The notes below the pieces were generated by a model. That model was not told the origin of the DNA. It searched no databases and saw only the letters and a list, made by a program, of their open reading frames with translations. 64,000 nt of DNA from Haliotis rufescens (Eukaryota): positions 47,120,001 through 47,184,000 of the forward strand of contig NW_025964223.1 of NCBI RefSeq assembly GCF_023055435.1, written 5' to 3'. Each line of letters opens with the position of its first letter. Within the stretch, counting starts at the first letter, position 1. The position numbers and the translations under genes are program-made. Positions 19,521 to 50,845 of this stretch are shown piece after piece.

Positions 19521-19649
19521 TGAAACTACGTGTATAACGGATATGGAGTTTATGCAGGTAAGAGTTTAAAAAATTCGAACAATCCAGATCTTCAAGCAGA
19601 TCTCCAAGGGGTATTCATGTTTGTGTTTCTGTCACAATGAGACAAATGT

Positions 19650-22262: not shown

Positions 22263-25094
22263 GGAGGAAATGAATATAGATTGCCATGTTGTCTGACTGT
22301 AGATATGATTTGTGATCATGCTTAGTATTCGTGCTTCAGGGTAATTATTATGGTCTTCAATCATTCCTTCTCTGGAGATCTGTAGGTGATGCTTTCACAC
22401 TGATGGAAGGAAGTCATTAAACCCAAAAAATTCAACTCAACTTATATCATATATTTTCTGCTTTGCTTTTTCATACTGCTTTAAATATTTCAGGTTCATA
22501 ACATCTCTGGCGTTTTGACTGGACAATAACCTCTTAAATGTATACAAATTAGGCCATTCATTCTTGTAAGCAATTGCTAGTATTCAAGTCTATGTTTTAA
22601 CAAATAATGAAATTCGCCTGCAACTAAAGGAGAGTTTCAACTCAGGCGTAGCATCGATCGCAATGTCGCGCGCCGTCACAGTTGGAAGTTGGAAGTTATG
22701 CGAGTGTGAATGTGAGGACCTAATTGGGTTTTTTAACTGTTCGAGCATTTAGGGGTTTTGTATGCTTAATATGGATACTTGGGACTCCCAAATGAGTTCG
22801 AGACAACCAGGATTTCGACACATCCAATTCGACAGATCCGAGGATAAATGATGTTGAATATAATAGGAATCGCATGAAACGGTTGGTGCATTCGCGACAA
22901 CCATGAATTCTACACATCTAAGTTCCACAGAAAGAGGTTCGACTATGTCAGGAGAAATATTTTTCGTGTCAAAATCTTTATGAGCCAGATGTACATTTAC
23001 ATCACACCCTGTATAAGTTGTGTATCCCTTATGCGATGCTTGTTTTATCTTACACGCCTATTGTGTGTACAATAAAATGTTGACTAAAACACTCCTATCT
23101 GTTGTCATTGTTGTATTTTATTGCCTTTTTTTCATCTCTCAACAAATCACAGTATTACTGAGAACTTGCTTTTATTACGTAAACACATGTAATTTGCTGT
23201 TTAAGAACATGAATGAGCTGATCAGAATTGCTCCTGCTTTACATGAACCAGTGAAACAAAACGGCCGCTGGTGATGATCGTTTTGTTGTTTTCCATGTAC
23301 TTGCATTTCGTTCCAGTTCTTGAAAGTAATTCTCACGATGACCACGTGTCAACCTCACGTGTCAAACTCACATTTCGGTGTGAATCTTTTCATCACTCCT
23401 GTATACAACCGGAATGACAACACAGAACCAAAACTAAATGAACCTATTCATAACAGTGCAGAAGTAAAACATATCTGACCACAGTGTGTAAAGATAATGG
23501 CAATCTAGCCTTAATGTCTGTATATTTATTGTTTTGCCTTTGCATGGTAAGGTGGAACAAGTGACACGTGTACCTTCTATTAAGTATGCAGTCTTTAACA
23601 TGCTACTCAGTTAGCCTTAGAAAAGTGATGAAGTATATACACACACACGTTGTGGAAAATAATAACTTTTGTTTTATTGTTGATGTATTACTACAATTGT
23701 CCTTGTTGCAATGGTAATGGAATCACCTGTTTTTGCTGCCATGACAACAGATCATAGAACACAAATGTGTAGTTATTAATCATTACCCTCCAGCCGGTAG
23801 GGGGCTCAGGGAATAGCCCCATTAAGAGGCTGAGATCCTCGTGGTCCAGTCCTGACATGGTAGACAAGACATTGTTGAAGCTTTCGTCAGGTGTTTTGGT
23901 TTTGGGTTTAGGGCAACTAGATTCCACACGTGCCTTACTTGAAATGAATGTTATTGGTCATGTTAAGAAAATCTGCAGCAACGAACTGTGGGCATTGAAA
24001 GTCATTTAAGGGAAACGATCTCACCTGGCTGTGCTTCCTTTTCACAAGGTTAAACGTATTCGCCTTCCACGGTCCTGCGGTTTTCAAACCTGGTAGTGAG
24101 ATAAATATTCGTCTGCAAGAACTTGGAACACTGTTTTAATCCCACTTCCTATTTTGCTGCAATTCTTTGAGTGTGCAACTCTAGGTCTGTCAGCAATGTC
24201 TAGTTTGAATTATATGGCGTAATAAGTGGCATGGATCAGTGCCATTTATTCATATTTAATCTTTCTTGATATCAATATCTATGATTGTTATTTGAGAAAA
24301 GGGAAACTATTTCTAAGCTAATTGGTAATCCCATTTAAAAACAAATACGATGCACGGTATGCAGATTTTATATATACATTCCAGCGACCTAAAGGTGTAA
24401 GTTATGTTTTAGGTATATGTACACTATTACGTGTGTAACCTTTATGTTTTGGAAATGAATCAACAGATAATGTACTCGTGTGAGCAGTGACGTGTCATAA
24501 CAAGAGACATGTATCAGAGTCCTTTATTTATCTTATGTTTCGTTCATTTTTTGTCACCAACGAAAATATGGTTTCTGATAAGAATTTGTGGATATTGATA
24601 TATGGTTTTTTTTGGTTGGTGTATCCTGTTTGTTGAGTGGTTAAACTTGTTATGTTACCACATCACTTAATTTCTTTTTGTAGTCTCTCAACATGACATC
24701 AAAGCTGATTTTCTTTGATGGAACTGAAAAGAAACAATGGTTATGTGTCAACTCTTATCAAACCCAATTCATTTCCAGTTCTTTCTCGTTAATGAAATGT
24801 GTCCATCTATTCTATTTATGTACATATAACACTTCATGCTCATACCAAACAAACTTATGCATAATAAATGAAACGGCGTCACAACACGATAGCTGGTTCA
24901 TTCATTGGTTATTCTGCCATTAAGTCTTTAACAGGGTCAGTAATTGCTCAACATTTTGCAGTAATTATGAAGAAGAAGAAAATTGTTTTATTAAAGTGTC
25001 ACATGCTGCAGTACTAAATATATGGACATATAAACATTTCATTAAAAAACAGCACCCGGCCAGTTGGCCTACGAGACACTAATTACATAATGGT

Positions 25095-25233
25095 NNNNNN
25101 NNNNNNNNNNNNNNNNNNNNNNNNNNNNNNNNNNNNNNNNNNNNNNNNNNNNNNNNNNNNNNNNNNNNNNNNNNNNNNNNNNNNNNNNNNNNNNNNNNNN
25201 NNNNNNNNNNNNNNNNNNNNNNNNNNNNNNNNN
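25095..25233. other. Assembly gap (N run)
   Basis: 139 N. Confidence 1.
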
Positions 25234-25329
25234 GTATATTACTACACCCACACTCACACCGATACACCCACACACACATCCGCATTAAAATCCCGCTCAA
25301 AGCATTCAAACAGGTAAGCATACAAACAG

Positions 25330-25510
25330 GTAAGCATACAGGACGCTCACAGCAATCTCATACAGGACACTCACAGCAGTTTCATACAGAACACTCACAG
25401 CAATCTCATTCAGAGCACTCACAACAATTTCATACAGAACACTCACAACAATCTCATTCAGAACACTCGCAGCAATCTCATACAAAACACTCACGGCATT
25501 CTCATACATG
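25330..25510. repeat. 24-bp minisatellite
   Basis: CATACAG(G/A)ACACTCACAGCAATCT variants, about 7 copies. Confidence 0.85.
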
Positions 25511-28500
25511 TCATACATTTATACACATATGCGTCCATATACACACAACTTTATACATCAATCGTGTATACTAACCTACATGTATAACTAGCATACATAC
25601 TAACATACCAACCTATATACATACCTATATTCATCAAACATAAATCAATCCTTATTATACATACACAGGTCCATCCATACCTATGTCCGTTTAAACACAC
25701 CTCAATCCAAATATACTAACACACATACGACCATACATCCATACCTATATTCATCCATACACATATCGATCCATATGTACATACACACATACAACCATAC
25801 CTATATCCATCCATTCACACCTCAGTCCATATATACATATACATATACACATACAACCATACCTATATCCATCCATTCACACCTCAGTCCATATATACAT
25901 ATACATATACACATACAACCATACAAGTGTCGTACTGAATACAGTATGAACATACATTAAATACAACAGATGATATAAATGAGAGGCACTGTGTACTAAC
26001 GTACATAAACACACCCGCCTACACACCTACGTGCATATATAAGACAATGCATAACATTATGGATGGGATAAAAAGTAATTAAAAATAAAAGCTAACAGTT
26101 TATATAAAGTTTACGGCGCCTGTACATTCTGTAGACAAGGGAGGCTAGGGATTTACTTATACATGTATACAATTATGTATACAGTAGTTTGAATCTTTCA
26201 CGCTGCATCGTGACAACTCATTAGATTAGTAGCAAATAATAATAATAATTATATTTCAACCAATTTATTTCATTAAGAATATATTATATCTTTCTGAAAC
26301 ATCCTTCTTAGATCAGAATTTCGAAAGGTTCAAATGATACGGAATACACAATGTTTAAACAAATCAATGCACCATGCTGTGCATACCGAGAGTATTTGTT
26401 CTGTCAGAGGATGCGTAAATGGATTCAACAACAAAAGTAACCCAGGCATCGACTTCCCCTCCATCTGTAACAGGTGAACATGTAAAACATAATTATAAAA
26501 AAGATCAAAACCACACGAAGAATCATTTTTAAAAAAGTTTATTCGTGTGTGTTGTGAGCGACCATCTAAACCAGTACCTTGTGATTTCAAGGTTATAACA
26601 TATGCATATTAAGGACGGGCCAATTTAGATTTGGGGGTGGGGTAGGGGTGAGATTTGTGATAGGGACCGCATATTTTCTTCTGCTGCTTTATGACAGGGG
26701 TCACAGAAGCTATGAATATCCACATCCTTGATGTTAAACATGTTGGTTTTACAGGCCTCCGTCGGATGAAAGGAATACTGTCTGTCAATAACTACTTAAT
26801 ACAGATACAAATTGTGTGAATGGCGGGTGCTACCGGTAGGGCAGGACATGCTGACTCTTTTCGCAATCACCTGGTGTCATCCCTGATGTTTAGTGGTCCA
26901 TTCATGTAATTTCCACAGCTATGTGCCCTCAATGCGAAGTGGAATCTGTTTCAGTGGATAATCAAGACTGGTTATTCTCTGGGATTGACGGTTTACATTT
27001 ACAAAGCTGAAATATACAAATCATGAGAACTGATTGTTCCATTCCATTCATCCTGCAAAGACATCCAATTGGAAGTTGCAACTGATTAAAAAATCAACGT
27101 TTATACAACATTTATCTGTCAACATGATATGTTAAAAGTTGAACCCCAGGACCAACTGCATCATGTTGTCATCACGAATCGTATTCTGGTGGGAGCCATA
27201 TTTGATAGTGAGTCAGTTAATATTTTACGTCACCTCGGCAATATTTTAGCCTTATCGTGACGACCATATTTAATAAAATCAGAGTAAAGTGCAACAACGA
27301 ATCTAGCACATTTGGATCATGTGTGAGGTAACCAAAACCCCAAAACCCTTTTCCATAATGATGACAAAATCTCTGCTAAAGGCAATCTGTCGTACGATTC
27401 CGACTTTAAATAGTGAGGATACCAGGTTTTCCCGAAAATGTGACGGGATCCGAACAACAAAAGGTTGCTCCCAACGCCGAGGGTTTACATTGTTTTAACC
27501 AAACCCGAGGCACAGTGTTTTTACTGAAACGATAATTTAATTTTCCAGAATACATTTCATGAACCTTAGGAAACGGGAGTAAAATATATCTTGCTAGCGT
27601 ACATGTATTTGAAAGAGACATTCCTAAAAGCAAAAGTGGATCACTCACTGCGCTACTGATACGAAGCTTGTAGGTTCGATGCCACTGAAATATAAGTTAC
27701 ATTTGTCTTTTGATTTAACATTAATCCGCACATTTCCTGAAGTTATCATTATATTATGTGCTCTATGAATTCTGTTTAACAGCTAAATATATCTATTGGA
27801 GTGTGGGATTTTCTATGGAATATCCCTGGGATAGAAGGATACTCTGGAGATAGAAAACAAGGCACCGTAAAATAATAGGATGACATCAATATAGGTTGTT
27901 TGAAGATATAAAAAGATCAAATGACAATGCGATGAAGTCAATGGAGGTTTATGAATCACATATAAAACATGATACGCGGTTTCAGGGGTCTCTCTTATTT
28001 TCTGTTTCTATGTTGGTAAATCAGTGGAACGGGGTTAGCCATTTTACAATTATTGAAGGCTATCAGATCATCGATATACATGACGATTATAATTTCTGTT
28101 AATCTCTTGGCCAAATTCCCTTGTTTTGACTTTGCCAATCAAGACAGTACTTCTGCATTACGAAACAGATGAGCAAGGAGGGGAATACAACCGGTACCCA
28201 TGGGGATGCCAACTTCTGTAATATCTAAATGTCCTACTCCCACAGTTCAGAAAAATGTTAACTCCGTGGAAGTCAAACATTTCACATATTATTTTCTTCG
28301 TATATTCCAGATGAAATTTTCTTTAATTTTGACACATTATCCTTAACTTGAGATGTAACTATATCTATGGTCACATTAACTGACAAATGCTCAATGGAAC
28401 TATACATGAATGATAATATTAGTGGACGGTGACTCCTAATCCGGTAACCCTACTGAAGACTTAGTCTGTACAGTTTTCAGATCATGTTGAACTTCCGTTT

Positions 28501-29121
28501 GTATTGTTTTTAAGTTCCATTTGTCATACCCAACATTTACAAGTTTCACGCTTTTCTCAACCCATTAACAGGAGGTTAATCAATCTCTCACTTTCATTTC
28601 AAGTGTTGCCACTTTCATTTTAATTTTAGAAATAACGTTATCAGTCAGGTCAGGTTTAGAAGGTTTTAATCAATGCTTGCCTGACTTTCCTTTATACATT
28701 TTGTCCAATCTGCACCTGTGGGTAGTAGGTCGATCTACGTCATGACAGTCCACGGGTTAATAGTAGTAGTTTATTCAAAAGCTGAATAAGGCTATCAGCA
28801 AAGGCCATTATACAAAATAATAACAAAAATACTCGAAACGCATGTTCGATTATGGACACATTGTCACGGTATAGGGGTTAATATCTGCTAGGCCCATCGA
28901 TACTAGCTGGTGTAATGAGCTGTGTAAGTAGTCGTCAGCTATTAGTCTAGTCAAGACTCGATCATGTGCTTGTGGCCGTGATAATGCTGGATTGCTGCTG
29001 ACATCAATGTTCACTGTTACTCACTTGCTCACTAGTTGTTCATGAAGACATGCAGTATGTTCATTTTACAGAGTTTTTCCTGTGTTCCTGTTCTAGGTGC
29101 ATCCGTTTTCATATTTGCGCC

Positions 29122-32181: not shown

Positions 32182-35100
32182 TCACGAAACGTAGATGTCA
32201 TTTTCTACCATGCAACATTTTTCTTTGGGCATATCTCCGCATTCTAAGCTCCCGTTGGCAGGAGTTTCATGGGTTGCGGGTCCGCTACAGTAGATATCGT
32301 TTTCTGTCATGTCACAAGCAGCAGCCTCAACTTTTCCACAATCGACGAAGCATGTATCCGTATTTTCATTACTAGCATCATCAGTTCTTTCATCAATAAG
32401 TTCCTTCTTTGATGGACTGTTTAAACACGTATCCATCATTTCGGTATTCTTCTCACATTCCTTGTTGTCGCCTCGTTTGAATCGAGAACTCCTTGGTAAC
32501 CCTTTAGAGTATAGGTCGTGTTCTGGTCTGGTGTCTGCCTGCTTGGATGTAGTTCCTGTATCTTGTACTTTTTCGGTACTTCCGGTTGTACTTGTTAAAA
32601 ATTGGCCAAAGTAAGTGTTAGTCGGTGCAGTTGACTCAGAAGCATTGAGTTGAAAGTGTATATGAGCGGAACTGTTGTCGGGAAGGGCATGCCGCCTTTG
32701 TTTACGTCTATAATGGAATAATAATGCATGATTAGTTGTAGTGACGCTCCGTGGTACATGTATGACTTTCACAAACTCTCATTAAAACTCTGAACAACCA
32801 TGTCGACTCATGAAGTACACGGTGTAATCAGGCATTTAGTATAATAGAAATTGATGTATTTCATCAGTATCATACAACTCTTATTTAAATGATGGAAGAG
32901 TGATCGTACACACGTCTCAAAGATGCCGTCCCATCTGTGGAATCGTTTATACAAATACAAAGGTTTGCCTAAGGCCGAACTTTGATAGTTTAGTCACGCT
33001 GATAGAGTTCATTTGTATCGCCTCATGAATAATGTTAAATACGAAGAGCTCGACGAAACGTTTTCGTAAGTTGTAAAACTGTGAGTGTTGGAAAGCAAAA
33101 ATGCTAATTCATAGCCATTCGAACACGCTTAGTAATTCAAGTAACAATATTTTTTAATAAAAAGTTTCATATTTTTTAGACTTTAAAGTTTTAAATGACC
33201 ATAAAAAAACTTCTCTATTATATTTTGTTCTGTATAAGCCATGCATTTGTGGCAAAATATATATTTATTCAAACATTTGTATTAGTATATAATAATTATT
33301 TCAAACATATTTACCTGCAAAGAACAATTGTGATAACCACAACAGTAAGTACACCACCACTCGCTGCACAAGCTGCCACAATTAAATCCACCGATGCTGA
33401 AACTGTAAGATCAGTAATGTTCACAAATCATTCGATGGTTTAAAAAAACAAACGCAATCCTACTCTTTGTCAAATATTTTAAAACGACGCCTATTATGGA
33501 TAGCGAAACCCCAAATATAGTAGAATCATACTGAAGTGGGAAAATGTCATAAGCGTTCATAATAATGATAATTAAATGCACTGAAACTCTTCTACCTTAA
33601 GGAACAGTTGTACCTATGTGCATAGTTGATATTGTGGACGTTAAACCTTTAGAGTGTTGCTTGACTGAAAAAGGAACCAACCCGCCAGCCGGTCAATCAA
33701 TCAATCAATTATAGAGGCCTGCATAAACAGTATGATATATTTTATGCAGGGCTTTATTGGGCCGATGTGACACTAACAAACGTGTATATACAGATAAATT
33801 ATGCATGTGGTTTTAAATTATTTTGGTGCGTAGTTGTTATTTTGGAGATTGCGCCTTCGAGCTGCTGATTGACATACCACTAGATACCACTCGTACTACA
33901 CCACACAGCGACCGTATGTATTCACAGGTGATGAAATAATGTAGTGTATACAAACACATGAAGTCCTGGCGATAATTATATTAAAATAATTAAAATATAA
34001 TTACTCGTCGATGATTTCGAAGGCCACGGTGTTGATTTACTTGCAGATGCATCGGTCGGAAAAGATGCTGTAACTGGAGATGACTGCGCCCTCGACGTTT
34101 CATTCACGTGTCCTGTGAGAATAGCAACATTATTAACAATTAGGTCCTGATCATCCTGGATTCAGAAATCATTTACACCACGGGACTGATGTGCATGCAA
34201 AAATGTGGCCGCTGGCAGACATTCTACATGTATTGGCGATAATTATATTATATTGTTTGACATATCGTAGATACCCAGCTGCATATTTATATTAGTATAG
34301 TGTGTAATTAATGAAACCGATTCGCATCCATTTGATTGCAGGGGTCTCCTAAAATCGAGTGATGTTATAACTGATATTCGTATATCGGATTTGTTATCAT
34401 TACAAAAACGTTATAAAGATTATGTACTATGTCTACCAATCTTTATCTGGGATCACATATATAATCGGAAGGTGTGTGGAAACAGTATTATCAGTACTTA
34501 GCCTGCCTTCTTAAAATGGTGTGTGTATGACACTCAATGGTAACGCCCCCTATTACCTTTAATTGGTACCGGCATAATTTATGTAAAATCAAAATAATCC
34601 ACTTGTATCCTCTAGTGTCTTATCATAATTTGGTAATATAAATATAAACAGACGTCCAAAAGAAACTTTACCAACTGAAAATAAGAATTTCAGACAAAGT
34701 ACAATTTTTTTTTATGAAGTCTATCTAAAACACATAACCTAAATACAACAATAGTGTTTGCAGAAAATGTTAATCGTCTGTTACATGTTTGCGAGATAAC
34801 ACGCGAAAAAGTGAAAAACACGTGCACCACGGACAACTGCAAATGCACGTGCGGGTAAGGGTATAAAACGATTGCAACGGCAAATCAGACATCCACAGTG
34901 ATAAAAAACACAAAAGAAATGCCACGACTCACAGTCGAACAACGTGAACGAGCCTTGGGTATGGTACAGATGGGAGCCACCCACGCCCATATTGCACGAA
35001 CCTTCGGTTGCTCCCGTGTTGCCGTTACAAACTTGATGCAACATTACAGACAGACAGGGCGGCCAGGCCAAGAACAGGCAGACCCAGGGTGACCACGCCC

Positions 35101-38100
35101 CATGATGACCGGTACTTGCGTACCTTGCACCTCCGAAATCGCTTCCTGACAGTGACGTCATCGGCGACAAATGCCTTAGGTCACAGGGTTAGTCGACAGA
35201 CAGTGGCCAGGAGACTCAGGGGTCATGGAATCGGGGCTTTTAGACCATACAGAGGACAGCCATGGACGGCGAAACATCGTCGTCTGCGATTGAGCTGGGC
35301 CCGGACTTTACGACGTTGGCAACGACGTGACTGGCAGAGGGTTGTCTTTACTGACGAAAGTCGATTCTGTATGTTTAGGGATGATGGAAGACAACGTGTT
35401 TACCGCCGAAGGGGTGAACGAACGGCGGCGTGTTGCGTGCAGGAGGTCGTACCATATGGTGGAGGGAGTGTCATGGTGTGGGGAGGGATCTGTGGGAAGG
35501 AGAGGACACTGCTGGTCATCGTTGACGGAAACTTGACAGCTCAGCGGTACATGGATAACATTCTTCGTCCAGTTGTCCTACCATTTCTCCAACAGCATCC
35601 ACGTGGTGTCATTTATCAGCATGATAACACTAAAGCCCATGCAGCCAGAATTGTCACTAACTTCCTCGCAGCCAACAACGTCAACGTCCTGCCGTGGCCT
35701 GCACGCTCACCCGACATGTCCCCCATAGAAAACCTCTGGGACTTGATGGATCGTCGTGTTCAACAACGACCACACTCTCCAGCCAACCGGCAAGAACTGA
35801 TCTTGGCCCTCCAAGAAGAATGACGTCAAATCCCACGTGACCTCATCAGACGACTGACTTTTTCTGTGCGTCGAAGAGTATTTGCGTGTATTGAGGCGTT
35901 TGATGGTCACACACGCTACCAATGACTTGTTATTGAACGTGAGCGATTGTTTATGTACTCTGCCTATTTTGTACCACACCCATCTCGGTCGCGGTATGAT
36001 TGTCATTTTCAGTGTTGATTATGTTGATATATTGAGCTTGTCAATACACTTTACTTCATGCATGTATGTTTTGTTGTTTTTGAGCAAGAGTGATTTCAAA
36101 CTCTGGTAAAGTTTCTTTTGGACGTCAGTTTAGTTTGTATTCTTCCCTCTTAAATCATTACATGATGTAAGTTATGTAAACATGATCAAGGTAAGTATGG
36201 CTTTAGAAAATAGCGCTCCAACTGGCTTGCAGTGTCTCTTCCAAATTAATTAGTGGCGGCTTAATACATCAATTCTATTTTTAACAATGAGGATATTAAA
36301 TATGTTTTCAAATACTATGGGACCGGATGAATGGAATGACTCACAACTCACACAAGTGAACTTTGTTATAATCACTCTTCGTGAGGTTTTTAATCTTTTA
36401 TATAATTATGTTTTACATGTTCACCTGTTGCAGACGGAGGAGAAGTCGATGCCGATGTTTCGTTTGTTGTTGAATCCACTGTAGCTTCCTCTGTTGTTGT
36501 TGATTCATCTTATTGGGAGAAAGAGACAATAGAACAGTAACTGTCGGTATGCACAGCACAGGGCTTTGATTTGTTTAAGCTTGTGTATTCCGTTTAGATG
36601 ATTTGTATGAACCTTTTGCAATTCTGTTCAAAGAAGGATGTTTCAGAAAGATATAAAATATACTTAATGAGTGAGTGAGTATGGTTTTACGCCGTTTTTA
36701 GCAGTATTCCAGCAATATCACGGTGGGGGTCACCAGAAATGGGCTTCACACATTGTACCCATATACTTAATGAAAGAAATTGGTTGCAATATATTATTAT
36801 TTGCTACTAATCCAATGAGTTGTTACGATGCAGCGTGAAAGATTCAAACCCCTGCATACATATCAAATGCAAAATATTAAGTTGAAGAGTTGTTAATAGA
36901 CAAATTACTACAGATCTGTTGAACGTTACAGATGTAACATATATATGTAAAATTAATGTTGTCAGTCTAGTATTATATTACCATTGATAAGACCATTTGA
37001 TTATGTTGTTTTGAAGATAGTATTGGAAAGTTCCGGGCTTTATTTGACAGAGTGGCGGGAGGATAGAGATCGTACAAATGAGTTAAACGTTCGGGAAGCT
37101 AAGCCTGTATGTATCGGGTATATGTATGGGCATATACAACTGAATGTTATAGCATCTATGTCGTGCTGATGTCATACAGTACAGGCGTATAAAGGCAATA
37201 CATGAGAACAAAGGGAAACACACAGCCGAAAGCTGACTATCATTGCTTCTGTGTGTTTAGGAAATCGGTATGGATACATTTTCGTGAAAATGTGTCCTGT
37301 GTATGCCGAATCTGCTTTTGAAAGGAAAAGGTTTGATGCATTCAAGTTTTCGATTACCGCCTGTGTAACTATTATGACACAAAAGTAATTTAGCTCACTC
37401 ACCAAACTTAGTGATTTTATAAGTTGTTTCTATTTACATGCATATGTGGCCGTTATTTACCTTTCCGCACATGTTGTGATCATGCCGAGTGAATGTATTA
37501 CAACTAAACATTATTTCGATACGGATGGGGAAGAGCTAGTTGTAGTGACAATGATAGGACATTCCCGACATGGAGAGCCGTAGGTCATGTTATTCATATA
37601 CATGTACTGAGGAATTGGTTTCAGTACAGATCGAGACCGCCTCCGTGGTCTAGTGGTAGAGCGTCCGCCCGGAGAGCAGAAGGTCCGGGGTTCGATCCCC
37701 GACCGCGTCATACCAAAAGACGTTAAAAGATGGTACTTGTTGTTACCCTGTCTGGCGCTCGACACTAAGGGGCAATAACAAGGACTGGTCGGCTCGGAGG
37801 GTATACTGTGTCTGAGTGGGGTATTCATGTTAAACTGCGGCATGCTACCTCAGTGAGCTAGCACTATCAATCGGCATCAGTCCGGACTAGTACAAGCAGC
37901 CACACAAACACACACACGTTCATGCACGTCGCTATATAAGTGCAATAATCTTGAACGCGACGTTAAACCTCATTTCACCTCACCTTCAGTACAGAACATC
38001 ACTATATATGTGACCAACCGTGAGGTAAGGGACCTCATTGGTGCAAAAATTACAGCATCTTCGGAACTCAAAATTAAGATTCACAAGCTTCAATTCATAT

Positions 38101-41100
38101 TTATTACATACATGACACCACGCATGGCTATTTTCCTTGATAGCAGAAGCGTATCCTAGCACCTATAAGGTCCCTTTTCTCCTGGTGGGTCACATATGTT
38201 ATATAACTCATATATTATAAGAAATAAAGTTTGCTCTACCCCTTTGTGTAGTGTAATAGAATGTAGTTTGCCCTGAACTGTTATAGTTAAAGCATGTGGT
38301 CGCTTATGACAGCTCAAAACAAAACTATATTTAAACTTTATTTCACTACACATATAGGGAAAGCAAACTTTATTACTTTGATTACTTTTCTCTGATGCCA
38401 AAATTTAAGACCACCCTCTTGTTTTATTAGAACTGGGTTTAAAATCAAAACTGTAATGACTTGTGGCGTGAATTGAAAAGCCTCGAACATAGCTAACTGA
38501 CGGGCTCTACCACCTCATTTCCTGCACCTTTAAGTTAAGAGAGCAATTTACGCTTTAAGCATTATAAAACACCACTAATATGTTTAGGTTATTAGTTACA
38601 TATGTCGAATTTCATTATCCATTTGTCCATTGGTTATTCATAATCTCTTGTAGGACATAAGTATAATAAGTGGGATTTAAAATAAAAGTTTTTACATTAA
38701 TTTCCTTCAAATTCATCACATGACTCGAAACATGTCACTGGTGTATTGTTGAGCCGAGCTACCTAGTGTAAACCTCGCCGAAGTTGTCGCTTGTTATTGT
38801 GAGTTGATGTGTTTTCTGACGTAAAACTTTGTTTCCACCACTAATGTTAGCAGACTGCAGCAACTGCAAGCCATGAAATTGTGTGCATACCGAGTTTGTT
38901 GCGCCAATCATGATACCGAAACCGACGTGAATCGACCTGGTCTGGGGCGTGATATGGCGTCGACGTCGGACGAAACATGGCGGAGGAAGAGCAACAGCGG
39001 CCGTTTAGTTTTACTGCTGTATATTGCCCAATGGCCGTACGCTGAGAAACAGGTGTACATGCATGTGGTTATGAAACTTATAAAGGATTGTTCATTCCTT
39101 CGTAAAAAGACAAATATAATTCCTAGGGCACCACCATGCGTATCGGACATGTTTTTATATAATTCTGTTGACACAGTGGTTTGAATATGTGTGGGATAAG
39201 CCTGCGGCATGGGAAATGGTTGACGTCATCATAGTCCAAATCACTATTGGCATCAGGTTTTGTTAACTGTGTATTCATTGATAAATTGATAGTTAACATA
39301 TCAGGAGATAAGACAAGAGATAAATATAATTGATACACTGATACATACCATCAACACGTATCCATACATTAGATCCATTCTGATCATGGTTAGTATAGAC
39401 TATTTCTACTTCGGCAGCTGTTTCCGGCAACACCCTGTTGTATTGGTCCACGTCCACGCTTGTCCAGAGTTGTTTCCCGTCACCTGAGATATTAAGTAAC
39501 CCTATCGTCATCCGCTCTTCTACCAATGTTACTCGTATATTCTGCCCTGTGATCCTAACAACACAGCTGCTGTTCACACCGACACTGCCAGGGAATCCCG
39601 GGGAATGGAGGTACACCGACCCGTTCACTGCTGTTCTGTCAGTGCCCGAACTACACATATCCAAACTGCCTGAAACACAATGCATATGACACGTAGAACA
39701 ACTTATACGTTGAATTTAGTGACTTATGTTGATATGGGTCACACCAAACAAATTCCCCACACGCACGCTTGATTTGGTATTAGCGTCTGGTTTATCAACG
39801 TTGAAATGAAGGGAACTTGAAGCTCATATAATGAAGAATACGAAAGTATTTGTCGACCGATCGGCACTGGATGTATAAGTGTTCAAATGTTCTACGAATT
39901 AGTACCAGGAGAATATCAATCTGAACACAAAACTGTTCACTATTAATCAAGTAGAGGTGTAGGAAGATAGTTTATGAATGTCAGCAGTAGCATATTCGTG
40001 ACAAGTGACGTCAGCGTTCATCTTATGATGTCACCCTTCGATGTTGTTTGTCCTGTGGCCGTCGTTGGCAGGGTGGTTCCATGTCTATCTGTCCCAGGGA
40101 CCTCTTACCCAAGTAGTTGGGATGTAGTCAATGTATTTGAGAACTTGTTCTCCCTCTGAGCTCTCTACGTTGGTGTCAACCCAAACTCTCGATACCATTC
40201 TTTATAAGCATGTAGGGCAGGTGACAACAAACATAGGGAAACGTGGTCTGGCGGTCAATTTCTTAGTTTATACGAACCCTCTAGCATAGCTAATTTCGGG
40301 GTCGGGGACGTTCCATAAAAAAGATAAGGAGAATTTGAAAAATAAGGTCTCCCCAGTTGACCTGCGTGTTCGTTTCCTTTGATCCCAAATTGTGAGGGTA
40401 CCTATATTATATTGATTTCTTTATTTTGATTGGTTAGTGTTCTGTTGAGTGTCGTGTTTGCGGTTTAGAAGATGTTGTATAATTTCTCTTTTTAATGGAT
40501 TGTATTGTGATAAGTAAGTCTACAAGGATTAGAATTGTGTTGTGTTTGGTTGTCTCTGCCTATTTCAAGGCCATATAAATTGCTGAGTTTTCTGCGGTAA
40601 ATATGGATAAGTTGTTTGGGTTTTGTGCTGATGTGATGGCTACATTTGTTTGGGTTGTGTTATTGCGAAGGCTGTTGTGTGGTTTGCCGGGTTATGTGAT
40701 CCGTCTGAGTAGATGTGTGTCAAGTGTGACCAGTGTAAGAACAGTGCCTGTATGAGGAGGTGGGAGGTGATATGAGTAGTTATGTATGACTAGTGTTTTA
40801 CGTTTTTAAGTTTGTGCACTTTACGAAGTTGTTGAGCCGAATGGTGTATGGCAGTCTTCGTCTTTCTACGAAATGAAATTTTACCCACTGATGCTACTGG
40901 CCACAATCTCAATTGGTGTCTTAAAATATATTTTTTAGAGAGCTATGGCCCTTGCTCCGTGCTTTACAACTTAGTGCATACAACGTGAAATGGGTACACG
41001 TTTTCTCTGAAACCACTGAAGTTACAGAATGAAGTTACTCAGAGGCTTTTCTAAGAGATACTCTCATCTCACCTATAAACATCACATATTTAAACTGCAT

Positions 41101-43142
41101 TAAGCTGATTCTCAAAATAACAAAAACAATAAATTGTCATATTCCCCTTTGATAATATGCCTGCAAAAGATATGAAGAGAACCTAGGCTCACTTAATCCG
41201 CAAACCACTCACTATTGTATTACGACCCGTGAAGATGCAGGGTACACAGGTCTTCAGCAACCCATGCTTGCCGTAAAAGGCGAGTATTCTTGTTGCAAGA
41301 GGTGACTAACGGGGATGGGTGGTCAGGCTCGCTGACTTGGTTGATACATGTCATCGTTCCAAATTGCGTGGATCGATGTTCATGATGTCAATCACTGGGT
41401 TGTCTGGTCCAGACTCGATTATTTTATAGACCGCCGTCATAAAGCTGGAATATTGCTGAGTGCGGCGTTAAACAACAAACAAACAAACAAATACACCCCT
41501 ACCAAAATAAATAAGTACATCTTATGAGGTTACCATGCATGTCTGGCTACATCGATTCGACGTAAAGGGAAGAAATGCACGATAGCGTTCTTCGATCTCT
41601 TTTTAACAATAGTTAAGTTATATCACATTCCGCTGCCTGATACAGATAATGTGCGTGCAGACCGTTGGTTAAACCAACGAGCACGTGTTTGGCGCAGACT
41701 GTTTTCAGAAACAGTCATGCAAACCAGGAGTCAAACCCAAGAACACAGAATCATAGGCTTCTCATGACATGCGATTTTCGTCCCAGACTACTGGATTACC
41801 CGCGCCCCCGTTATATAAAATATATTCGAACACTTCAGGCTAGAGGGCTGCAACACCAGAATGCACTTCATCATCCTTACTCCAGGAATCCACATGAAGT
41901 AAAATGTGAATGAATGAATGTATTATTGAATCGGCGACTGACATCATTAAAAGCAATCGATGTTTAATTTACGTCTCACCTTTGATGCAGGTATAATTTA
42001 TTTCAGCAGCAGCATCTGTGACGTTACAGGTAAGGGTGGATGCGGACACGACTTCACGGCATGACTGTTTCCCATTACAGTTGGCGATCAGGCCATTCTG
42101 GCTGCTGTTGTGAACCTTACTGCACGACGCATCATATTTCAGGCGACATGTCGCGGCGTCTCCATCCCCATACGCCTCTTGCTCGACATGTATCCATTCA
42201 CCGGCAGAACACTGAAGCTGTACTGTAAAGGTTCGCGACAACAACTCTATACATCTGTTCCTAGTTCTGGTGTCACCTTTGAATATAATGTAACTCGTTC
42301 AGTGTCAAATATATTTAGCTAAATATGACACAGTCGTAGGTAAATACTACATACATTTGCAATAATCGAGTTGTAAGTAAATAGTTTCTATAAGCGACTT
42401 GAGCAGTAATGTATTTGTGGCATACATAACCGTAATTCTATCTCAAATAAGGCATTACTGTTGAAATCATGAGGTGTTACTATATACCATATTACTGTTA
42501 GTTCGTTTGTGAGCANNNNNNNNNNNNNNNNNNNNNNNNNNNNNNNNNNNNNNNNNNNNNNNNNNNNNNNNNNNNNNNNNNNNNNNNNNNNNNNNNNNNN
42601 NNNNNNNNNNNNNNNNNNNNNNNNNNNNNNNNNNNNNNNNNNNNNCAATCTCGCTGCACTTTACATCAGTGATTTATCGCTAACATTTCTACGTCTAAGA
42701 TTGATTTAGCCTATTGCATCAATGATTCTGAAATGTTTATTGATGTCTGGAATGCGCCTTTGCTATTTTCCACCTTTTGCTATCTTGATAATTTTGTTGT
42801 CCTTACGTGTACATATAAATGCTCTCTGCCTCATGGCATTCATTCACCTGATGAAGGAGTAGGCATATACTCCGAAACGTTGTGTTTCTCATCAAAAAGA
42901 AATTGACATCCATATATTCTCTTCCTTATGTGTACCACTTCTAAATGCCTTTCATAGACCTGATTCTCAGACGATTGTTATTAAATTAATACCTGATTCA
43001 GAGCATTAGATCTAATTCGAAACTAATTATTTTTTTCTCAAAACATGACATGGCTTCAACAAAAATACTCACAGTTAGAAACCGAAACACAATACACACA
43101 TATCACAATGTGTGTCACCCAAAATATATTGTCAGCAAACAT
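32182..43142 (-). CDS. Gene B: type I membrane protein, complement(join(32182..32707,33315..33402,34005..34112,39349..39669,41980..42276,43073..43142)), 469 aa: signal peptide, SUEL/rhamnose-binding-lectin-like, CUB, S/T stalk, TM, Tyr-motif tail
   Basis: GCGCCATG start; exon 1 MFADNIFWVTHIVICVYCVSVSN|GTGAGT. All introns GT-AG with phases 1,1,1,1,2; 1410 nt open. LQCSAGEWIHVEQEAYG...CNGKQSC...INYTC is the SUEL pattern; C...GSVYLHSPGFP...SSCVVRI is the CUB pattern; TM LIVAACAASGGVLTVVVITIVLC followed by RRKQRR. Confidence 0.88.
34647..36130 (+). mobile_element. Full-length Tc1 (DD34E-type) transposon, 1484 bp, disrupted transposase 34919-~35920
   Basis: 27-bp TIR AAC(A/T)GACGTCCAAAAGAAACTTTACCA with TA on both sides. 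MPRLTVEQRERALG start; FTDES, QHDN and SPDMSPIENLWD motifs; frameshift near 35055 and premature TGA at 35821. Confidence 0.95.
36340..36860 (-). repeat. Dispersed repeat, inverted homologue of 26178-26530 and 57320-57520
   Basis: TATTTGCTACTAATCCAATGAGTTGTTACGATGCAGCGTGAAAGATTCAAAC is the reverse complement of ~26187-26240; other blocks also match. Confidence 0.85.
36671..36760 (-). mobile_element. 5'-truncated SINE family A with perfect 13-bp TSD
   Basis: ATATACTTAATGA at 36658-36670 and 36761-36773; the empty site is seen in the homologue near 57405-57420. Confidence 0.92.
37631..37984 (+). mobile_element. Full-length SINE family B with 11-bp TSD
   Basis: A box TGGTCTAGTGG, B box GGTTCGATCCC; TTCAGTACAGA at 37620-37630 and 37985-37995. 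Confidence 0.92.
38007..38196. mobile_element. 190-bp MITE with ~35-bp imperfect TIRs
   Basis: TATGTGACCAACCGTGAGGTAAGGGACCTCATTGGTGC versus the reverse complement of the right end, TATGTGACCCACCAGGAGAAAAGGGACCTTATAGGTGC. Confidence 0.75.
40016..40165 (-). mobile_element. Decayed MULE/Mutator transposase fragment
   Basis: Manual translation KYIDYIPTTWVRGPWDR*TWNHPANDGHRTNNIEG*HHKMN matches the W..WN...RTNNxxEGWH motif. Confidence 0.7.
40350..40760 (-). mobile_element. Decayed RNase H domain of an I/Nimb-type LINE
   Basis: Motifs in order: HIYSDGS, LSIFTAENSAIYMAL, *VPSQFGIKGNEHA. Confidence 0.7.
41224..41490 (+). mobile_element. SINE family C, near-complete copy
   Basis: GACCCGTGAAGAT...GGAATATTGCTGAGTGCGGCGTTAAAC(AAAC)n. 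Confidence 0.85.
42516..42645. other. Assembly gap (N run)
   Basis: 130 N. Confidence 1.
42845..42884 (+). ncRNA. Minimal type I hammerhead ribozyme in a Penelope-like pLTR fragment (to ~42956)
   Basis: CAC-CTGATGA-A-GGAGTA(GGCATA)TACTCC-GAAACGTT-GTG: stem I CAC/GTG, conserved core, 6-bp stem II, palindromic helix III. Confidence 0.75.
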
Positions 43143-43373: not shown

Positions 43374-43512
43374 NNNNNNNNNNNNNNNNNNNNNNNNNNN
43401 NNNNNNNNNNNNNNNNNNNNNNNNNNNNNNNNNNNNNNNNNNNNNNNNNNNNNNNNNNNNNNNNNNNNNNNNNNNNNNNNNNNNNNNNNNNNNNNNNNNN
43501 NNNNNNNNNNNN
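43374..43512. other. Assembly gap (N run)
   Basis: 139 N. Confidence 1.
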
Positions 43513-43738: not shown

Positions 43739-45213
43739 TACTGAACTGCAAACTAAACGTCACCATGGATAGATATATGAGAAACCTTATTTGTCCAAAC
43801 ACTGTAAACATACTTGAGACATATTAAAAGGATGAAACTTGGCAAAACTGATCATCAAGGTTAAAATTAAAGTGTCAAATGTTATTAAAGTGAAACACAA
43901 CACTATTTTCTGAGAAAATGGCATCACAAGTCGTGTGTCCGCCATGTGCATTGATGACTGCCGTGCAACGTCGATACATTGAATGGATGAGGCTGTTGAT
44001 GTAGGCCATAGTTCAGCTGCAGTTGTCGGCCTTGGTCGGACGTCATGGATCATTCAGCCGTCTTTGAATCTCGTCCAACAGGTGCTCATTGGCATTTAAT
44101 TCGGGATTGAGGTCAGACTACTGCATGGTTCTGATGCCATGGTTCTGCTGAAGGAAGACTCTTGTTGCTCTCGCAGTGTTGGTACGGGCGTTATCATGCT
44201 GAAACTCGTGGTTGCGGCGACGTGCCAAGGTATGGCGTGTGGTCTCAAGACTTGATCAATGTACCGAGCTGCTGTGGCACCATTGCCTCTCCCTGGTTCG
44301 ATGTTCTGGGAGACCACAGGGCCGACCCTCTGTGCAAGACCAATTTCACCCCACACCATGATTCTCGGACCACCCCACGAGTTTCTCTCAACAACACAAG
44401 CATCCGAATAACGTTTCCCACTCTGCCATCTGCTGTTGAGATACAGTAACGGCTCTCGTCTGAGAAGAGGACCACTGCTGTTGGCACCAATGCTGGTGTT
44501 GTGTTGCCCACTAAAGACTGCCCCGGCGATGACGGGTTGTCAGAATGGGTCCTCGGTGTGGCCTGTGACAGTGGAGGTGTTTGCTCGTCAATCGTCGACG
44601 CACGATGTCCGCACTGATGTGTCGTTGATGTGTCCCCATAGTCTGTCGAGCAGTTTCCGCAGCAGTAACAAAGCCATCTTGAAGATGCTGTCGCACAATC
44701 TGACGATCCTGACGTCGGGTGGTGACCCTTGGTCTTCCACTACGTGGTCGGTCATCTGTAGTGTTGGTGGTCTGGTACCGTTGCTGGAGCCTGTATTAGG
44801 TCCTTGCGTGGACTTGAAATGCATTGGCTACTTGCCGGGCGGTTTGTCCACCTTGCAATCGTCCAAGGGCTTGGTGTCGCTGATTTCTTGTCAATCTTGG
44901 CATGTGGTAGCAATTCAATGACGAATGAATGTTATCCGATCTGGGTGGATTTTTAAAGGGCAAGAAATGGGGGAACGAATGTGCATTTCAATTTGCACGG
45001 AACTCACGTGCATCGAGTTACAATGGCCGTTGCCGTAATGCGTTTGGGCGATCGGTTTTATTGTCATCAGCTTTGTTTTTTTATCATCAAATTTCATTTT
45101 GCCGGACAAGGTAATGTTAAATTTTAGAAACTTTGACAAACATTACCCAGATATTTAAATGACAACTTTTCATGCAATGTTACTTGAGGTGACGTTTCGT
45201 TTGCCGTTCATTA
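43739..45213 (-). mobile_element. Degenerate full-length Tc1-type transposon
   Basis: Imperfect TIRs (CTGAACTGCAAACTAAACGTCACC / ATGAACGGCAAACGAAACGTCACC); fragments LFSDESRY, MVWGEIG and TAARYIDQVLRPH in shifting frames. Confidence 0.85.
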
Positions 45214-45715: not shown

Positions 45716-48700
45716 ATATCCTCCATTTTGTATATGATCTTTGTTTCCGTGAATCACTTATTTGCATTAATGTGGATGCATTTCAACTGTGGTATTATCA
45801 ACGACACACGTGGCGAAGTGTATGCTGATTTGAGTGGCGACCGTGTTGCCGTACAGTTTCAGGATGCTGGGGAGTTGCCTCCCTTGGATACTATTTTTAA
45901 TGGGTCCACAGCGGGTTTTTTAGGCAAGCTTGCTCAAAACTTTTGCAACGAAGTCACACGCAAGGTAATTATTGTGTCAGTCAGTCTTACCACTTTTCTT
46001 ACTTTGTAAGGCAGATATAAGATGTATTATTGTTCACTTTGTATTGTATTCCCAGCCCACGTGGTTGTTCACTGAGGCTGTCAATACTCGTGACTTGTTA
46101 ATCGTTATCGTAATACGTTTGATAAATACGTGCAGCCTTGTGGCTCATTGTTATCGGGTGTGCCTGTGTGCACCCGACACCGGCGAGAGAAATTGCCTGT
46201 ATGTGTCGTATTCATGTCGTGCTCTCGGCATTTTTGTTTCTTACACGTGGTTGGCGTGAATTGTGAATTGTCCAATGTCTGTATGGGACATTGCGGTATG
46301 TGAATAAACCTCTGTGTACTGAGATTCTTCTTGTGTATTGTATTTAGCAATTTGTTATTTAAGTTTATTATTTGAAACAGAAGCACCGCCACGCACCTGT
46401 CTGGTCACAATACTGGGACTGTAAGCTCTGCCATATTCCAATGATAGGAAGGCTTACACCTTTCACATTCACTGGAAACTTCTAGCTGATTTAAAAATAT
46501 TTTGTAAAGTGCTTATTTCGTTATCCTCATCGGGGATTAATAATGTCAGTCTGGAACAAAAGATGTCAAGGACACCTGCTGACATTGGGACAAACCATGC
46601 GTCCGATCACAGGCACCCACGATAATAAAAGTCTCCCTGGTCTAACGCTACTTGTGTCATCGTCGATCCAATTCATAGAACTGCTGACAATCCTGAAGGA
46701 GATTTTCAGTTCGCTGACGAAGGTCTGTTTGACGTTTCGCGGTGGTTGATGTGATTGGTACACTTCATCCCAAACATATATACGGTTGTTACTAGAATAT
46801 AATATACTTCCAAAACCTTAGCGATTGGCGTCCTCCTCTTTCGCTTTGTTTCGTATTTAATTTGATTTTAATTTGATTTGATTTGATTTGTAAGTGAACG
46901 AGAAACCTATGGCTTATTTATAGTGAGTTTAACCCCTGGACGAGGGTCATCAAACCATGGCTAAGGACCTAAGCATGTAGACAATGTAGTTTAACATTGT
47001 TTTGATGTCTATATTGAAAACGATACACCCAAACACGCTGTTCATAACTACCTACGTTCGAGCAATAAAACACTTAATGAAACACAAATACCCCGATTTA
47101 TAAACAAATGCACCGTTTCTTGTGATGTTAGTATATATTACTTCTACAGACCTTTTTGACGATGTTAGCATCATGGGCGACGACCTGTAGTTTCTTGAGT
47201 TTAATTAGTAACTGCGCATGATGGACAAAGACGGTTCTTTGGAATATGAATAAGTTATTTCGAAGGGAATGTAAAACAACATAACCACATATGTTCAAAG
47301 CTTTGAGAAATAATTCATAACGAAGCAGATAAACCAAATATATCAAGCAGGCGGACTGATCAGGTGATTAAAGAAAGGATTTATTGGAATGTGGATACTA
47401 TGGAACATAACATGGAATATGGAACATATTTTAAACATTTTAGAGAAATAATTAACAAAATAAAGATTATGTATTATACTTTACATGCACATGTACGCTT
47501 TTATTAAGAATACTGGTTGACTGGTGAATATACAGGCGAATAATGGAATAACTACAGGGGTCTGAACTTCCAGCGTGTGTGCTGTCTGTGTGTGTTAATA
47601 AATAGACGGAAAGAGTTAACAAAGGAATGCCCTTCACTGCTAGTTATTGGATCGTAGCTATGTTCGTCACCATGCTCACTTGTATTATGTTGTATTTCAT
47701 CATTATGCCGACTGAGGCCAGAGTACGTTCGTGTTAGTGGTGTCATTAGGATTCATCTTTCCCTAGGAGTTCATAACTAATCTGAAGTTTCAGAATCAGA
47801 TGATCAATTACCATGCAAAATCCTCCTGTATGGCTAGATTACTATGCTGCAGCACATATCACTTGTTGTCAACGTATGATTTCGAATGGTTAACTGTGCA
47901 TGCTAAGTGTCAGTTACACAATGCCTCGCCATTACAAACCATAATTATCGTTACCCTGATAATCGTATTATTTCTTCAATTGCGTTTATTTTTCGCGTTT
48001 CGGTACTTTCATTTACTTTGCAGTGAGGCTATTCTGTGTTTAAGATATTCGCTGATCTGTGTCTATTATGATGAAACAACGATCGTGCTTACTCAAGTTT
48101 TTTTTATGATAATTCACGATAAACCAAGTTGAATAGCATATGCCATATTCTTAATGTCTCTCTTCAGGTTTGGGAAGGGACAGGAATACGGTGATGAAAG
48201 GTTTCCACATATACGTGTTCTGTGTTGTATTATCAGGGACAGTTTGATCCGAATAGAGAATCAGAACAAACGATCTACACCTAATCGAAACAAGCTCGTA
48301 CAAATGAGTTAAACCAAACGATTGACATGTTCTGTTTAAAATACCCACGTCGTTTTACAAATATTTAATTTAATGATTCAAAATGTTATTTTTATCGGAA
48401 AGGTTTACAGTACCATACTTAACATCGCCTTTCATACCCGTTTGACTGAATATTGCAAGTGTGAGACATAAATTCGACTATGTACAACATGAGCATGTAT
48501 CCGCGGAACGTGATGGTGGGGACATGTCTGTTAAGTCCATTATGAGCAATCCTTAACATTCCTAAGTTTAATTGCCAAGATTTCATATTTGTGTCACTGG
48601 CAAAATGTCGCGTCAGTTCACAGAACAAGTAGAAACAGATAATACTGATTTGCTGACAAAGGGTTTATGAATTTATGATATTTAATGAACACTCACCATT

Positions 48701-49602: not shown

Positions 49603-50681
49603 TACTCTTCAAAAAAAGAAACTTGACACTGACTTTCAAAATGTAATATAATGCGATTGTTTCAAAATAGGACACAGAAACCATAATTGAAACACTGTTT
49701 GAAGATCAATGTACACAATGTTCAAAACATTAATCATGTCACCTAGACAGACACACGTACACGATACAGTTAATGTCACAGGGGTACAGTACAGTACAAA
49801 TGTCAGTATCGGTTGTGCCCACCACGTGCATCAATCACCGCTTGACACCGACGACCCACAGATGCAACCAAGTTGTCAATAACACGCTGTTGGATGTGCT
49901 GCCATTCATGCTGAAGTGCATCAAGAAGCGCCGGAAGTGTTTGGGGCTGTGGATTCCTTCTGCGAACGCTTCGATCCAACTCGTCCAAAAGATGCTCAAT
50001 CGGGGACAAATCTGGTGACCGGGCTGGCCAAGGTAATGTCTGGATGGTGCTGTAAGAAGTCCTGACAAACACGTGTAATATGCGGTCGAGCGTTGTCCTG
50101 CTGGAACTGTCCGCCATGAACGTTGACGTGAGGAAGAACGTAAGGCTGTAGGATCAAGTCTCTGTAACGCACACCTGTCAATGCACCTGCCACATGCACG
50201 AGAGGCGTCCTACCACCGTGATGAATTCCGGCCCATACCAAGCCACTCCCGCCGCCAAATGGGACAACCTGCTGCACACAGTTGGGGGCGTAACGTTCAC
50301 CCCGACGTCTGTAGACACGTGCGCGCCCTCAGCACGTGTGAGTAGGAAACGGGACTCGTCAGTAAACAGTACATTTCTCCACCTTGCACGTGCCCATCTA
50401 ACCCTCTGTTGGCACCAAAGCAGACGGTCCGCCAGATGACGTGGGGTTAATACATGACGTCAAACAGGTCTTCGTGCAAAAAGTCCAGCCTCCCTCAGTC
50501 CGTTTGATCTCATATTATGCGTACCCAAACGCTACGTTTATGTGCTTTGCATGTGTTTTCGCGAATTATAGACACATCATCTTTCTGTTTGACTTATTTG
50601 GTTCTCATTTAATGTAATTAGTTTAGATATTTGGCAAAAAGTGGTTTTACATCTATGTCAAGTTTCTTTTTTTGAAGAGTA
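49603..50681 (-). mobile_element. Internally deleted Tc1-type transposon (~1.08 kb)
   Basis: Perfect 26-bp TIR TACTCTTCAAAAAAAGAAACTTGACA; motifs FTDES, FQQDNARPH, WPARSPDLSPIEHL and GGHNRY; the N-terminal DNA-binding region is missing. Confidence 0.93.
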
Positions 50682-50695
50682 TAAATTATGTTACC

Positions 50696-50845
50696 AGTTC
50701 TGGTGTTACCTTTGAATATAATGTAAGAGGTTCACTATCAAATATACTTGGCTATAAATACGAAAATGATGCAAAGAGATTACTACATTTTCAGGTAAAT
50801 ACCACATACAATGTGCAATAATCGAGTTGTCATCAAATAGTTTCA
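50696..50845 (-). pseudogene. Relic of a gene B paralogue: intron 1 3' end plus first ~14 nt of the lectin exon
   Basis: Aligns with 42263-42388 (AGTTCTGGTGT.ACCTTTGAATATAATGTAA...GGTAAATAC.ACATACA.T.GCAATAATCGAGTTGT...AAATAGTTTC). Confidence 0.8.

Follow-up and report, generated by a model that had tools for sequence, protein, structure and literature searches.

A predicted abalone type I receptor with a de-lectinised SUEL domain, a CUB fold and a PTB-type tyrosine tail, in a family with alternative tails

What might a membrane receptor recognize once its lectin-like domain has lost the sugar pocket, and to which signaling route would its tail connect? These questions are raised by a gene at 32182-43142 on the minus strand of a 64,000-nucleotide stretch of the Haliotis rufescens genome (assembly GCF_023055435.1, contig NW_025964223.1, positions 47,120,001 to 47,184,000; the whole stretch is called the window), for which an original prediction, made from the letters, had proposed a lectin-CUB single-pass receptor with repeated tyrosine motifs in its tail. 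The reading that we favor, at a probability of about 0.55, is that the gene would encode a protein-binding, non-catalytic type I receptor whose phosphorylated MxxNxxY repeats dock phosphotyrosine-binding (PTB) adaptors, with ligand, kinase, adaptor and tissue all predicted.

The gene at 32182-43142 is real. Rebuilt from the window DNA, it reads as a single open frame from an ATG at 43142 to a stop at 32182, with 485 open codons in seven coding exons, where six had been claimed; all six introns are GT-AG, with phases 1, 1, 1, 1, 1 and 2. The 485-residue product comprises a signal peptide, an eight-cysteine SUEL/RBL fold, a CUB fold, a Ser/Thr stalk, one transmembrane (TM) helix and a cytoplasmic tail of ~175 residues. 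The open frame, the GT-AG introns and the fold models described below bear out the domain order of the original prediction, and the single TM helix together with a tail that holds no catalytic domain bears out its non-catalytic, single-pass architecture.

Exon 1 (43073-43142) supplies the signal peptide (residues 1-23) and a phase-1 donor. It shows a likeness to the N terminus of H. rufescens LOC124137134 (P0040; 9/24 identities, ungapped, the top of 197 compared, with a score equalled in 8 of 100,000 shuffles) and is unlike the signal peptides of the closest ectodomain relatives. Because exon 1 lies on a 728-base piece flanked by N gaps at 42516-42645 and 43374-43512, its link to exon 2 depends on scaffolding and homology. 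Exon 2 (41980-42276) encodes the degenerate SUEL/RBL domain and is 73-82% identical to its best Haliotis relatives; the acceptor at 42276 is preferred because it regains the first SUEL cysteine and the relatives' N-terminal segment. An acceptor at 42222, which loses that cysteine, was rejected. Exon 3 (39349-39669), with Haliotis matches, encodes the CUB-fold domain with its two cysteines, and exons 4 (36425-36508) and 5 (34041-34112), both GT-AG and phase 1-1, encode Ser/Thr-rich stalk resembling stalk segments of P0031/P0035 and P0036/P0065, respectively. The TM helix, the only one in the gene product (hydropathy 2.5 across 21 residues), is encoded by exon 6 (33315-33402), ends in Cys-Arg and is 48-60% identical to the TM segments of relatives with the same tail type (type A, see below). 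For this exon an alternative acceptor at 33396 fits equally, both being frame-preserving; one at 33392, which breaks the frame, was rejected. Exon 7 (32182-32707) encodes the type-A tail, with its stop two residues past the last motif, and is 41-45% identical to H. rubra P0036/P0065. When the tail was used in word-based searches, no match came up among 245 longer and 13 similar-length candidates; as relatives at 41-45% exist, these blanks reflect low sensitivity.

Two contigs from sequencing runs that we guess to be RNA are weak transcript hints: a 183-nt contig of run X1 is identical over 182 nt to exon 7 at 32324-32505, and a second, more divergent contig from another such run aligns up to 42277, at the revised acceptor of exon 2. 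In the reads of 4 of the 18 runs, in which contigs of short interspersed elements and transposons were dominant, no exon junction was among the 15 joints listed (2,378 others), and uncovered intron bins in these runs carry no weight. The RNA reads neither support nor contradict the splice junctions, and the gene model is a predicted one.

Profile searches and structure prediction, which the original prediction had proposed as checks, gave a split answer for the ectodomain: both folds emerged from the models, the first on the window exon and the second on a relative, while the profiles fell short. The SUEL domain matches Pfam PF02140 at E 4.5e-7 and 30.6 bits, below the gathering cut-off of 31.4, and the cysteines at 8, 22, 43, 51, 66, 72, 83 and 96 of the exon-2 product reproduce the eight-cysteine RBL spacing. 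The AlphaFold model of exon 2 has a predicted local distance difference test (pLDDT) score of 91.7. For structural comparison the domain was folded alone, and the eight best matches are all SUEL/RBL-fold chains (Z 8.1-5.8; next 4.9), the best having Z 8.1 and a root-mean-square deviation (rmsd) of 2.9 over 85 aligned residues. The best Foldseek match is the lectin domain of LAT-1 solved in complex with the protein TOL-1 (E 1.1e-3). In the full-length model of the relative P0004 the SUEL part has pLDDT <50, and Foldseek with that model gave no E <0.001. The window SUEL domain, as modeled alone, has the RBL fold.

The sugar pocket within this fold is a different matter. In latrophilin-1, rhamnose is contacted by Glu42, Tyr63, Gly117 and Lys120, and the substitutions K120A, K120R, E42A and E42R leave binding undetectable (PMC2430599). 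CSL3 relies on the same four pocket residues, and rhamnose-binding lectins are marked by YGR and DPC..KY motifs (PMC3269628). At the four positions the window domain has Ile, Tyr, Val and Ala, keeping one of the four; the Arg65 equivalent is also replaced, YGD stands in place of YGR, and the DPC motif and KY are absent. The pocket lysine (Cys7+5) occurs in 0 of 41 Haliotis family domains, as matched by pattern, and an N-glycosylation sequon at Cys7+1, within the binding loop, is found in 38 of these 41 and in the window, where it directly follows Cys7. The Tyr63 equivalent is retained in 21 of 25 aligned domains, and the window has a Glu at Cys1+2, where the pocket Glu is expected at Cys1+1. 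Judged by these residues, the SUEL domain is de-lectinised: those needed for sugar binding are gone. The RBL domains that head its structural matches are of the receptor-borne type, and receptor-borne RBL domains with such changes have been argued to bind non-carbohydrate ligands (PMC2430599).

The Pfam CUB profile (PF00431) matches neither exon 3 nor any of 20 relatives, and a PDB sequence search with the exon gave 0 matches; Atlas features scored 0.88 for CUB, which served as a lead only. P0004, 80% identical across exon 3, was modeled in place of the window exon, and its block has pLDDT ~50-80. The 21 best structural matches of this model are all CUB-containing proteins, headed by spermadhesin 1spp (Z 10.2, rmsd 2.3, 98 aligned); a GOLD domain comes next at Z 7.3, a small margin at the bottom of the list. 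Judged from the model of this relative, exon 3 encodes a CUB fold. In each of the 47 related modules (46 by pattern, one by eye) the exon that follows the CUB core encodes an additional strand, and in eight distant relatives this strand ends in a cysteine that co-occurs with an additional CUB cysteine. No such exon was found in window intron 3 with a hidden Markov model, a degenerate codon pattern or relaxed tblastn. The structural match to known CUB domains stops at about residue 226 of P0004, short of the extra strand, so the window CUB core may still fold.

The tail has the length originally predicted and is only mildly acidic (D+E 17%, K+R 12%), D+E being 20-23% in 10 of 11 same-type relatives. 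All three tyrosine motifs lie where they had been placed, and two of them are true repeats: MTENDIY (32290-32310) and MVENDIY (32191-32211), copies 1 and 2 of the family motif, fit the consensus M-[VTI]-[ED]-N-[DG]-[LVI]-Y, which is an NxxY of the PTB type that lacks the proline. The third, EHDLY (32509-32523), has no Met at -6 and holds instead the conserved Tyr of a distinct Y-[SA]-x-[VA]-[LV]-P site, in which Y+3 is Val or Ala in all aligned tails and Gly in the window. The tyrosines are conserved, those of EHDLY and MTENDIY in 12/12 aligned type-A tails and that of MVENDIY in 10/12, where two H. rubra tails are frame-shifted and their aligned Tyr was left uncounted; the tails aligned are those of paralogues, no one-to-one orthologue having been found. 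Among 60 motif instances in family tails, selected by Asn or His at -3 and a hydrophobic residue at -1, Met stands at -6 in 57 and Pro at -2 in 0, so that the family motif is not a canonical NPxY; relatives' tails hold up to 9 copies. With the pattern [MY]xxNx[LIV]Y, which was picked after the sequence was seen, two copies arose in 0 and one copy in 120 of 100,000 tail shuffles. No ITAM or ITIM (immunoreceptor tyrosine-based activation or inhibition motif) was found by pattern in the window tail. Separately, the unrelated single-pass proteins P0171, P0082 and P0144 (CUB-CUB; mucin-like in Lingula; another) end in MxxNxxY, up to three times.

PTB domains can bind NxxY motifs that have no proline. 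The Asn and Tyr of the CD200R NxxY are kept across vertebrates, its Pro is not, and the receptor signals via Dok2 (PMC8007030); Shc favors a hydrophobic residue at -5 (PMC3355962), and the specificity of PTB domains is set by the flanks of the motif (PMC4985636). Both window motifs combine Asn at -3 with Met at -6, and one has Val at -5, as described for PTB recognition of the NxxY type (PMC3355962, PMC8007030).

The 28 distinct family tails fall into 12 of type A, which carry this motif, 3 of type B, 12 of type C and 1 truncated. An ITAM-like pattern with 6-12 spacing occurs in 0/12 type-A tails. Types B (3/3) and C (12/12) all contain YxxL/I-x6-12-YxxL/I, with 6-8 spacing in 8 of the 15, as well as Y[AVI]N, and none contains the type-A motif; shuffling each tail gave the ITAM pattern at rates of 0-4%. 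In H. rufescens (LOC124137133 and LOC124137135), P0017 and P0020 are identical over their first 320 residues, as P0018 and P0019 are over their first 310, and then diverge into A and B from the TM exon; H. cracherodii P0028/P0038 show the same A/B switch behind a common ectodomain. Each A/B set stands under consecutive RefSeq isoform accessions, which amounts to three RefSeq genes in two species. Conversely, H. asinina P0016 and P0039 have their last 460 residues in common behind two different ectodomains. A tree of 28 ectodomains places those of H. rubra and H. asinina together (100/99) and a second ectodomain type apart (100/100), and A and C tails are present in both of these well-supported clades. 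Like ectodomains joined to two signaling tails, as in paired receptors, are found at family level in the RefSeq models; for the window gene the PTB-type tail alone was seen. The receptor may be one arm of a paired system that is switched by splicing. P0001 of H. rubra, as an observation apart, has two SUEL-CUB modules, of both ectodomain types, before one type-A tail, through fusion, read-through or annotation merge.

How far does this family extend? The CUB-like exon has 39 matches among 143 candidates, all in Haliotis (rubra, rufescens, cracherodii and asinina) at 67-81% identity, in proteins named 'uncharacterized' or by low-complexity labels in RefSeq. When a profile was run against 1.84 billion representatives, 246 sequences matched, many of the weak ones over stalk and TM alone; 150 were listed and 20 given species names. 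Among the matches listed are SUEL-CUB(-TM) relatives from Pomacea, Batillaria, Elysia, Physella, Patella, Gigantopelta, Pinctada, Saccostrea and Solemya. Single, more conserved SUEL-CUB-TM proteins with short tails are found in bivalves. The SUEL-CUB-TM architecture is, on these matches, mollusc-wide and the close-knit expansion abalone's own; the lineage-specific family of the original prediction survives as an abalone tandem expansion and not as an architecture, which other gastropods and bivalves share. No description of the family was found in the literature searched (titles and abstract starts, with subscription papers and supplements outside this scope; genome-paper supplements could list the genes). 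In a survey of Aplysia immune genes, 3 SUEL genes are counted by domain, with no mention of such receptors in the passages matched (PMC9334734).

Pieces of the family adjoin the gene. The last exon of an upstream paralogue (53391-54150, minus strand, acceptor 54150) encodes a second type-A tail, of 253 residues, with MTENDVY, MVDNDMY and MVTNDLY, and is 92% identical over 263 residues to H. rufescens LOC124137134; its upstream exons were not found within the window. As LOC124137133 and LOC124137135, the neighbors of LOC124137134, belong to the same family, this paralogue most likely places the window gene within a tandem cluster, and we infer that it is a member of a fast-evolving Haliotis cluster. 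A decayed type-C (ITAM-like) tail exon lies at 47576-47734 (minus strand; E 5.7e-10 to P0004), with its frame broken upstream and two motif tyrosines gone. No matching TM exon was found in the window; the position, downstream of the neighbor's type-A tail, is as expected for a two-cassette gene. A stub of a duplicated exon-2 acceptor (50689-50844, minus strand; 72% over 156 nt to 42256-42388) keeps ~20 coding bases and is then unrelated. At 26270-26558 (plus strand) and 57297-57522, in a duplication joining 24254-28880 to 56614-64000, exon 4 and its flanks recur as an inverted, degenerate copy that contains a stop.

Compared with known systems, the gene has RBL and CUB folds and is neither a rhamnose-binding lectin nor EVA-1 nor an ITAM/ITIM receptor. 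With the rhamnose-binding SUEL/RBL lectins CSL3, SUL-I and SUEL it has in common the eight-cysteine RBL fold (Z 7.6-7.7) and the conserved Tyr-Gly; unlike theirs, its domain is without YGR, DPC and the pocket Glu/Gly/Lys, and is a single one, below the Pfam cut-off, on a membrane receptor. Latrophilin/LAT-1, EVA-1/EVA1C and PKD1L2 are likewise membrane proteins with an RBL fold and substituted sugar residues, and EVA-1 has two RBL domains (PMC2430599), whereas the window gene has one SUEL exon plus one CUB and stands in a tandem multigene cluster. Latrophilins are seven-TM adhesion G protein-coupled receptors, in contrast to the single-pass product here. To our knowledge, EVA-1 is without a CUB domain. 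Kremen, neuropilin, Neto and spermadhesins have the CUB fold in common with the gene (Z 8-10), and the co-receptors Kremen, neuropilin and Neto also the non-catalytic tail; the window family differs from all of these in its low identity (7-17%), two cysteines only, absence of a Pfam CUB match, extra C-terminal strand and other partner domains. Vertebrate paired receptors link similar ectodomains to different signaling tails; the alternative tails of abalone differ in bearing ITAM-like motifs themselves and in being annotated as splice forms of one gene. CD200R works alike, its non-catalytic NxxY tail docking a PTB adaptor (PMC8007030), an analogy between an immunoglobulin and a SUEL-CUB receptor in which homology is not expected. 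The Biomphalaria GRC and PTC2 regions are likewise clustered, divergent single-pass gastropod genes with gene-sized gains and losses (PMC7494358), a likeness of organization; clusters of that type are marked by allelic polymorphism and disease association, whereas the abalone cluster is known by paralogue divergence alone.

In the mechanism that we propose, the SUEL-like and CUB domains, raised on a glycosylated stalk, would bind a protein ligand on another cell, matrix or microbe; receptor clustering would let a cytoplasmic tyrosine kinase phosphorylate the M-x-[ED]-N-x-[LIV]-Y repeats, and these would then dock IRS/Dok- or Shc-type PTB adaptors. Within the family the same ectodomain may bear an ITAM-like/YxN tail, and the choice of tail would set the output. 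Several observations weigh against this proposal. The Dok consensus (Y/M)xxNxLpY, an exact fit to the motif, was not found in the literature searched. Unrelated TM proteins have MxxNxxY too (7 of 144 representatives), which makes it a widespread invertebrate tail motif and not a family-specific one, and 11 of the 16 distant relatives checked have no NxxY. Type A is defined by the motif itself, same-type tails share ancestry, so that the ITAM counts amount to about three events, and the isoforms come from automatic RefSeq annotation, which can mis-join models in a tandem cluster. A non-canonical sugar site in the SUEL domain is possible, given the kept Tyr and the Glu at Cys1+2. Finally, NxxY motifs function in trafficking as well (PMC8007030).

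This last point leads to a second account, in which the protein would be an adhesion or developmental co-receptor (EVA-1-, Kremen- or neuropilin-like) with unphosphorylated sorting or cytoskeletal tail motifs of the Dab/Numb/SNX17/FERM type and no immune role. It can appeal to the latrophilin and EVA-1 SUEL folds, which mediate neuronal and developmental protein contacts (PMC2430599), to the classification of PTB domains, in which Dab-like members bind unphosphorylated motifs (PMC3938774), and to the single-copy, more conserved, short-tailed bivalve relatives. It has to contend with the tandem expansion, the species-wise grouping of ectodomains, the decayed copies, the ITAM-like alternative tails and as many as 9 motif repeats in one tail. 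Tandem expansion, species-wise grouping, decayed copies and alternative tails are more typical of recognition clusters, and we consider a co-receptor role unlikely, although it deserves serious weight. The sugar-binding alternative, in which the SUEL domain acts as a lectin and the protein as a glycan-binding pattern-recognition receptor, was that of the original prediction, and we now regard it as very improbable. The RBL fold is upheld and the Tyr63 equivalent is mostly kept, with a Glu nearby in the window; in addition, spermadhesin, the best CUB match, binds carbohydrate, which leaves room for a non-canonical sugar site. The equivalents of Glu42, Gly117, Lys120 and Arg65 are replaced, however, YGR/DPC is lost and a sequon sits in the binding loop, and such changes abolish binding in latrophilin-1 (PMC2430599).

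It is also conceivable, if rather unlikely, that the family is functional and the window copy a mosaic of the cluster that is decaying or defective, or a mosaic created by the assembly. Two features that also tell against our preferred reading point this way: the exon for the post-CUB strand is missing, and the stop falls directly behind motif 2, a point beyond which 10 of 12 relatives continue. One motif is eroded, the nearest relatives differ for signal exon, ectodomain and tail, the best identity of the CUB exon is 81%, yet the neighbor's tail reaches 92% to H. rufescens, and broken family pieces adjoin the gene. Against decay stand the 485 open codons in seven GT-AG exons with consistent phases, the retention of all eight SUEL and both CUB cysteines, the end of the known-CUB match in P0004 before the absent strand, and the exact 182-nt match of the guessed-RNA contig to exon 7. 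Given its mosaic make-up, missing exon and shortened tail, the copy may be impaired. The PTB-docking receptor nonetheless remains the reading that we prefer. A more far-reaching picture, which we put forward tentatively and as improbable in its entirety, is that the de-lectinised SUEL-CUB ectodomains of the abalone cluster would see self or non-self proteins, with last-exon splicing toggling between a damping PTB/Dok and an activating ITAM/Grb2-type tail and duplication reshuffling the cassettes; it would be an independent molluscan paired-receptor system in which the window gene is PTB-only.

Other features share the window. A Tc1/mariner transposon (34650-36130, plus strand, ends approximate; DDE_3 E 1.8e-15, HTH_Tnp_Tc3_2 E 1.3e-9) of very high DNA read depth lies within intron 4, outside the protein, and more Tc1/mariner-like transposase fragments were recognized by eye at 10147-10842, 44096-45000 and 49803-50460. 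A near-intact long interspersed nuclear element (58216-62775, minus strand) has an ORF1-like frame of 435 residues and an ORF2 of 1083 residues with endonuclease and reverse transcriptase. Directly upstream of the paralogous tail exon, a 176-residue open reading frame (54435-54965, minus strand) without a Pfam match resembles, on inspection by eye, the GIY-YIG end of a Penelope element. An intronless 308-residue protein kinase frame (1452-2378, plus strand; Pkinase E 5.3e-48) is perhaps a retrocopy. A second type-I-membrane-like gene (14650-20389, plus strand) has a Cys-rich domain exon (14650-14980), a Ser/Thr stalk exon that holds a 45-nt tandem repeat (~18670-19017), a TM-like exon near 19478-19558 with two stops in the hydrophobic frame, and a possible tail exon (20168-20389); the gene has no Pfam match, and comparison of its Cys-rich domain with the family gave a probability of 0.5%, which does not show homology.

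The de-lectinised pocket is a caution that sugar binding is overcalled where immune gene lists use the label 'SUEL lectin', and the family itself escapes Pfam-based surveys. The single window gene is unexceptional alone and may be impaired; the tail switch seen at family level is of more interest than this copy. Few recognition receptors of molluscs have defined signaling tails, and one ectodomain wired to two tyrosine tails would offer a test of the balance between activation and damping in molluscs, as in vertebrate paired receptors. The cluster would also be a place to look for loci behind disease resistance or self-recognition in an animal that is farmed.

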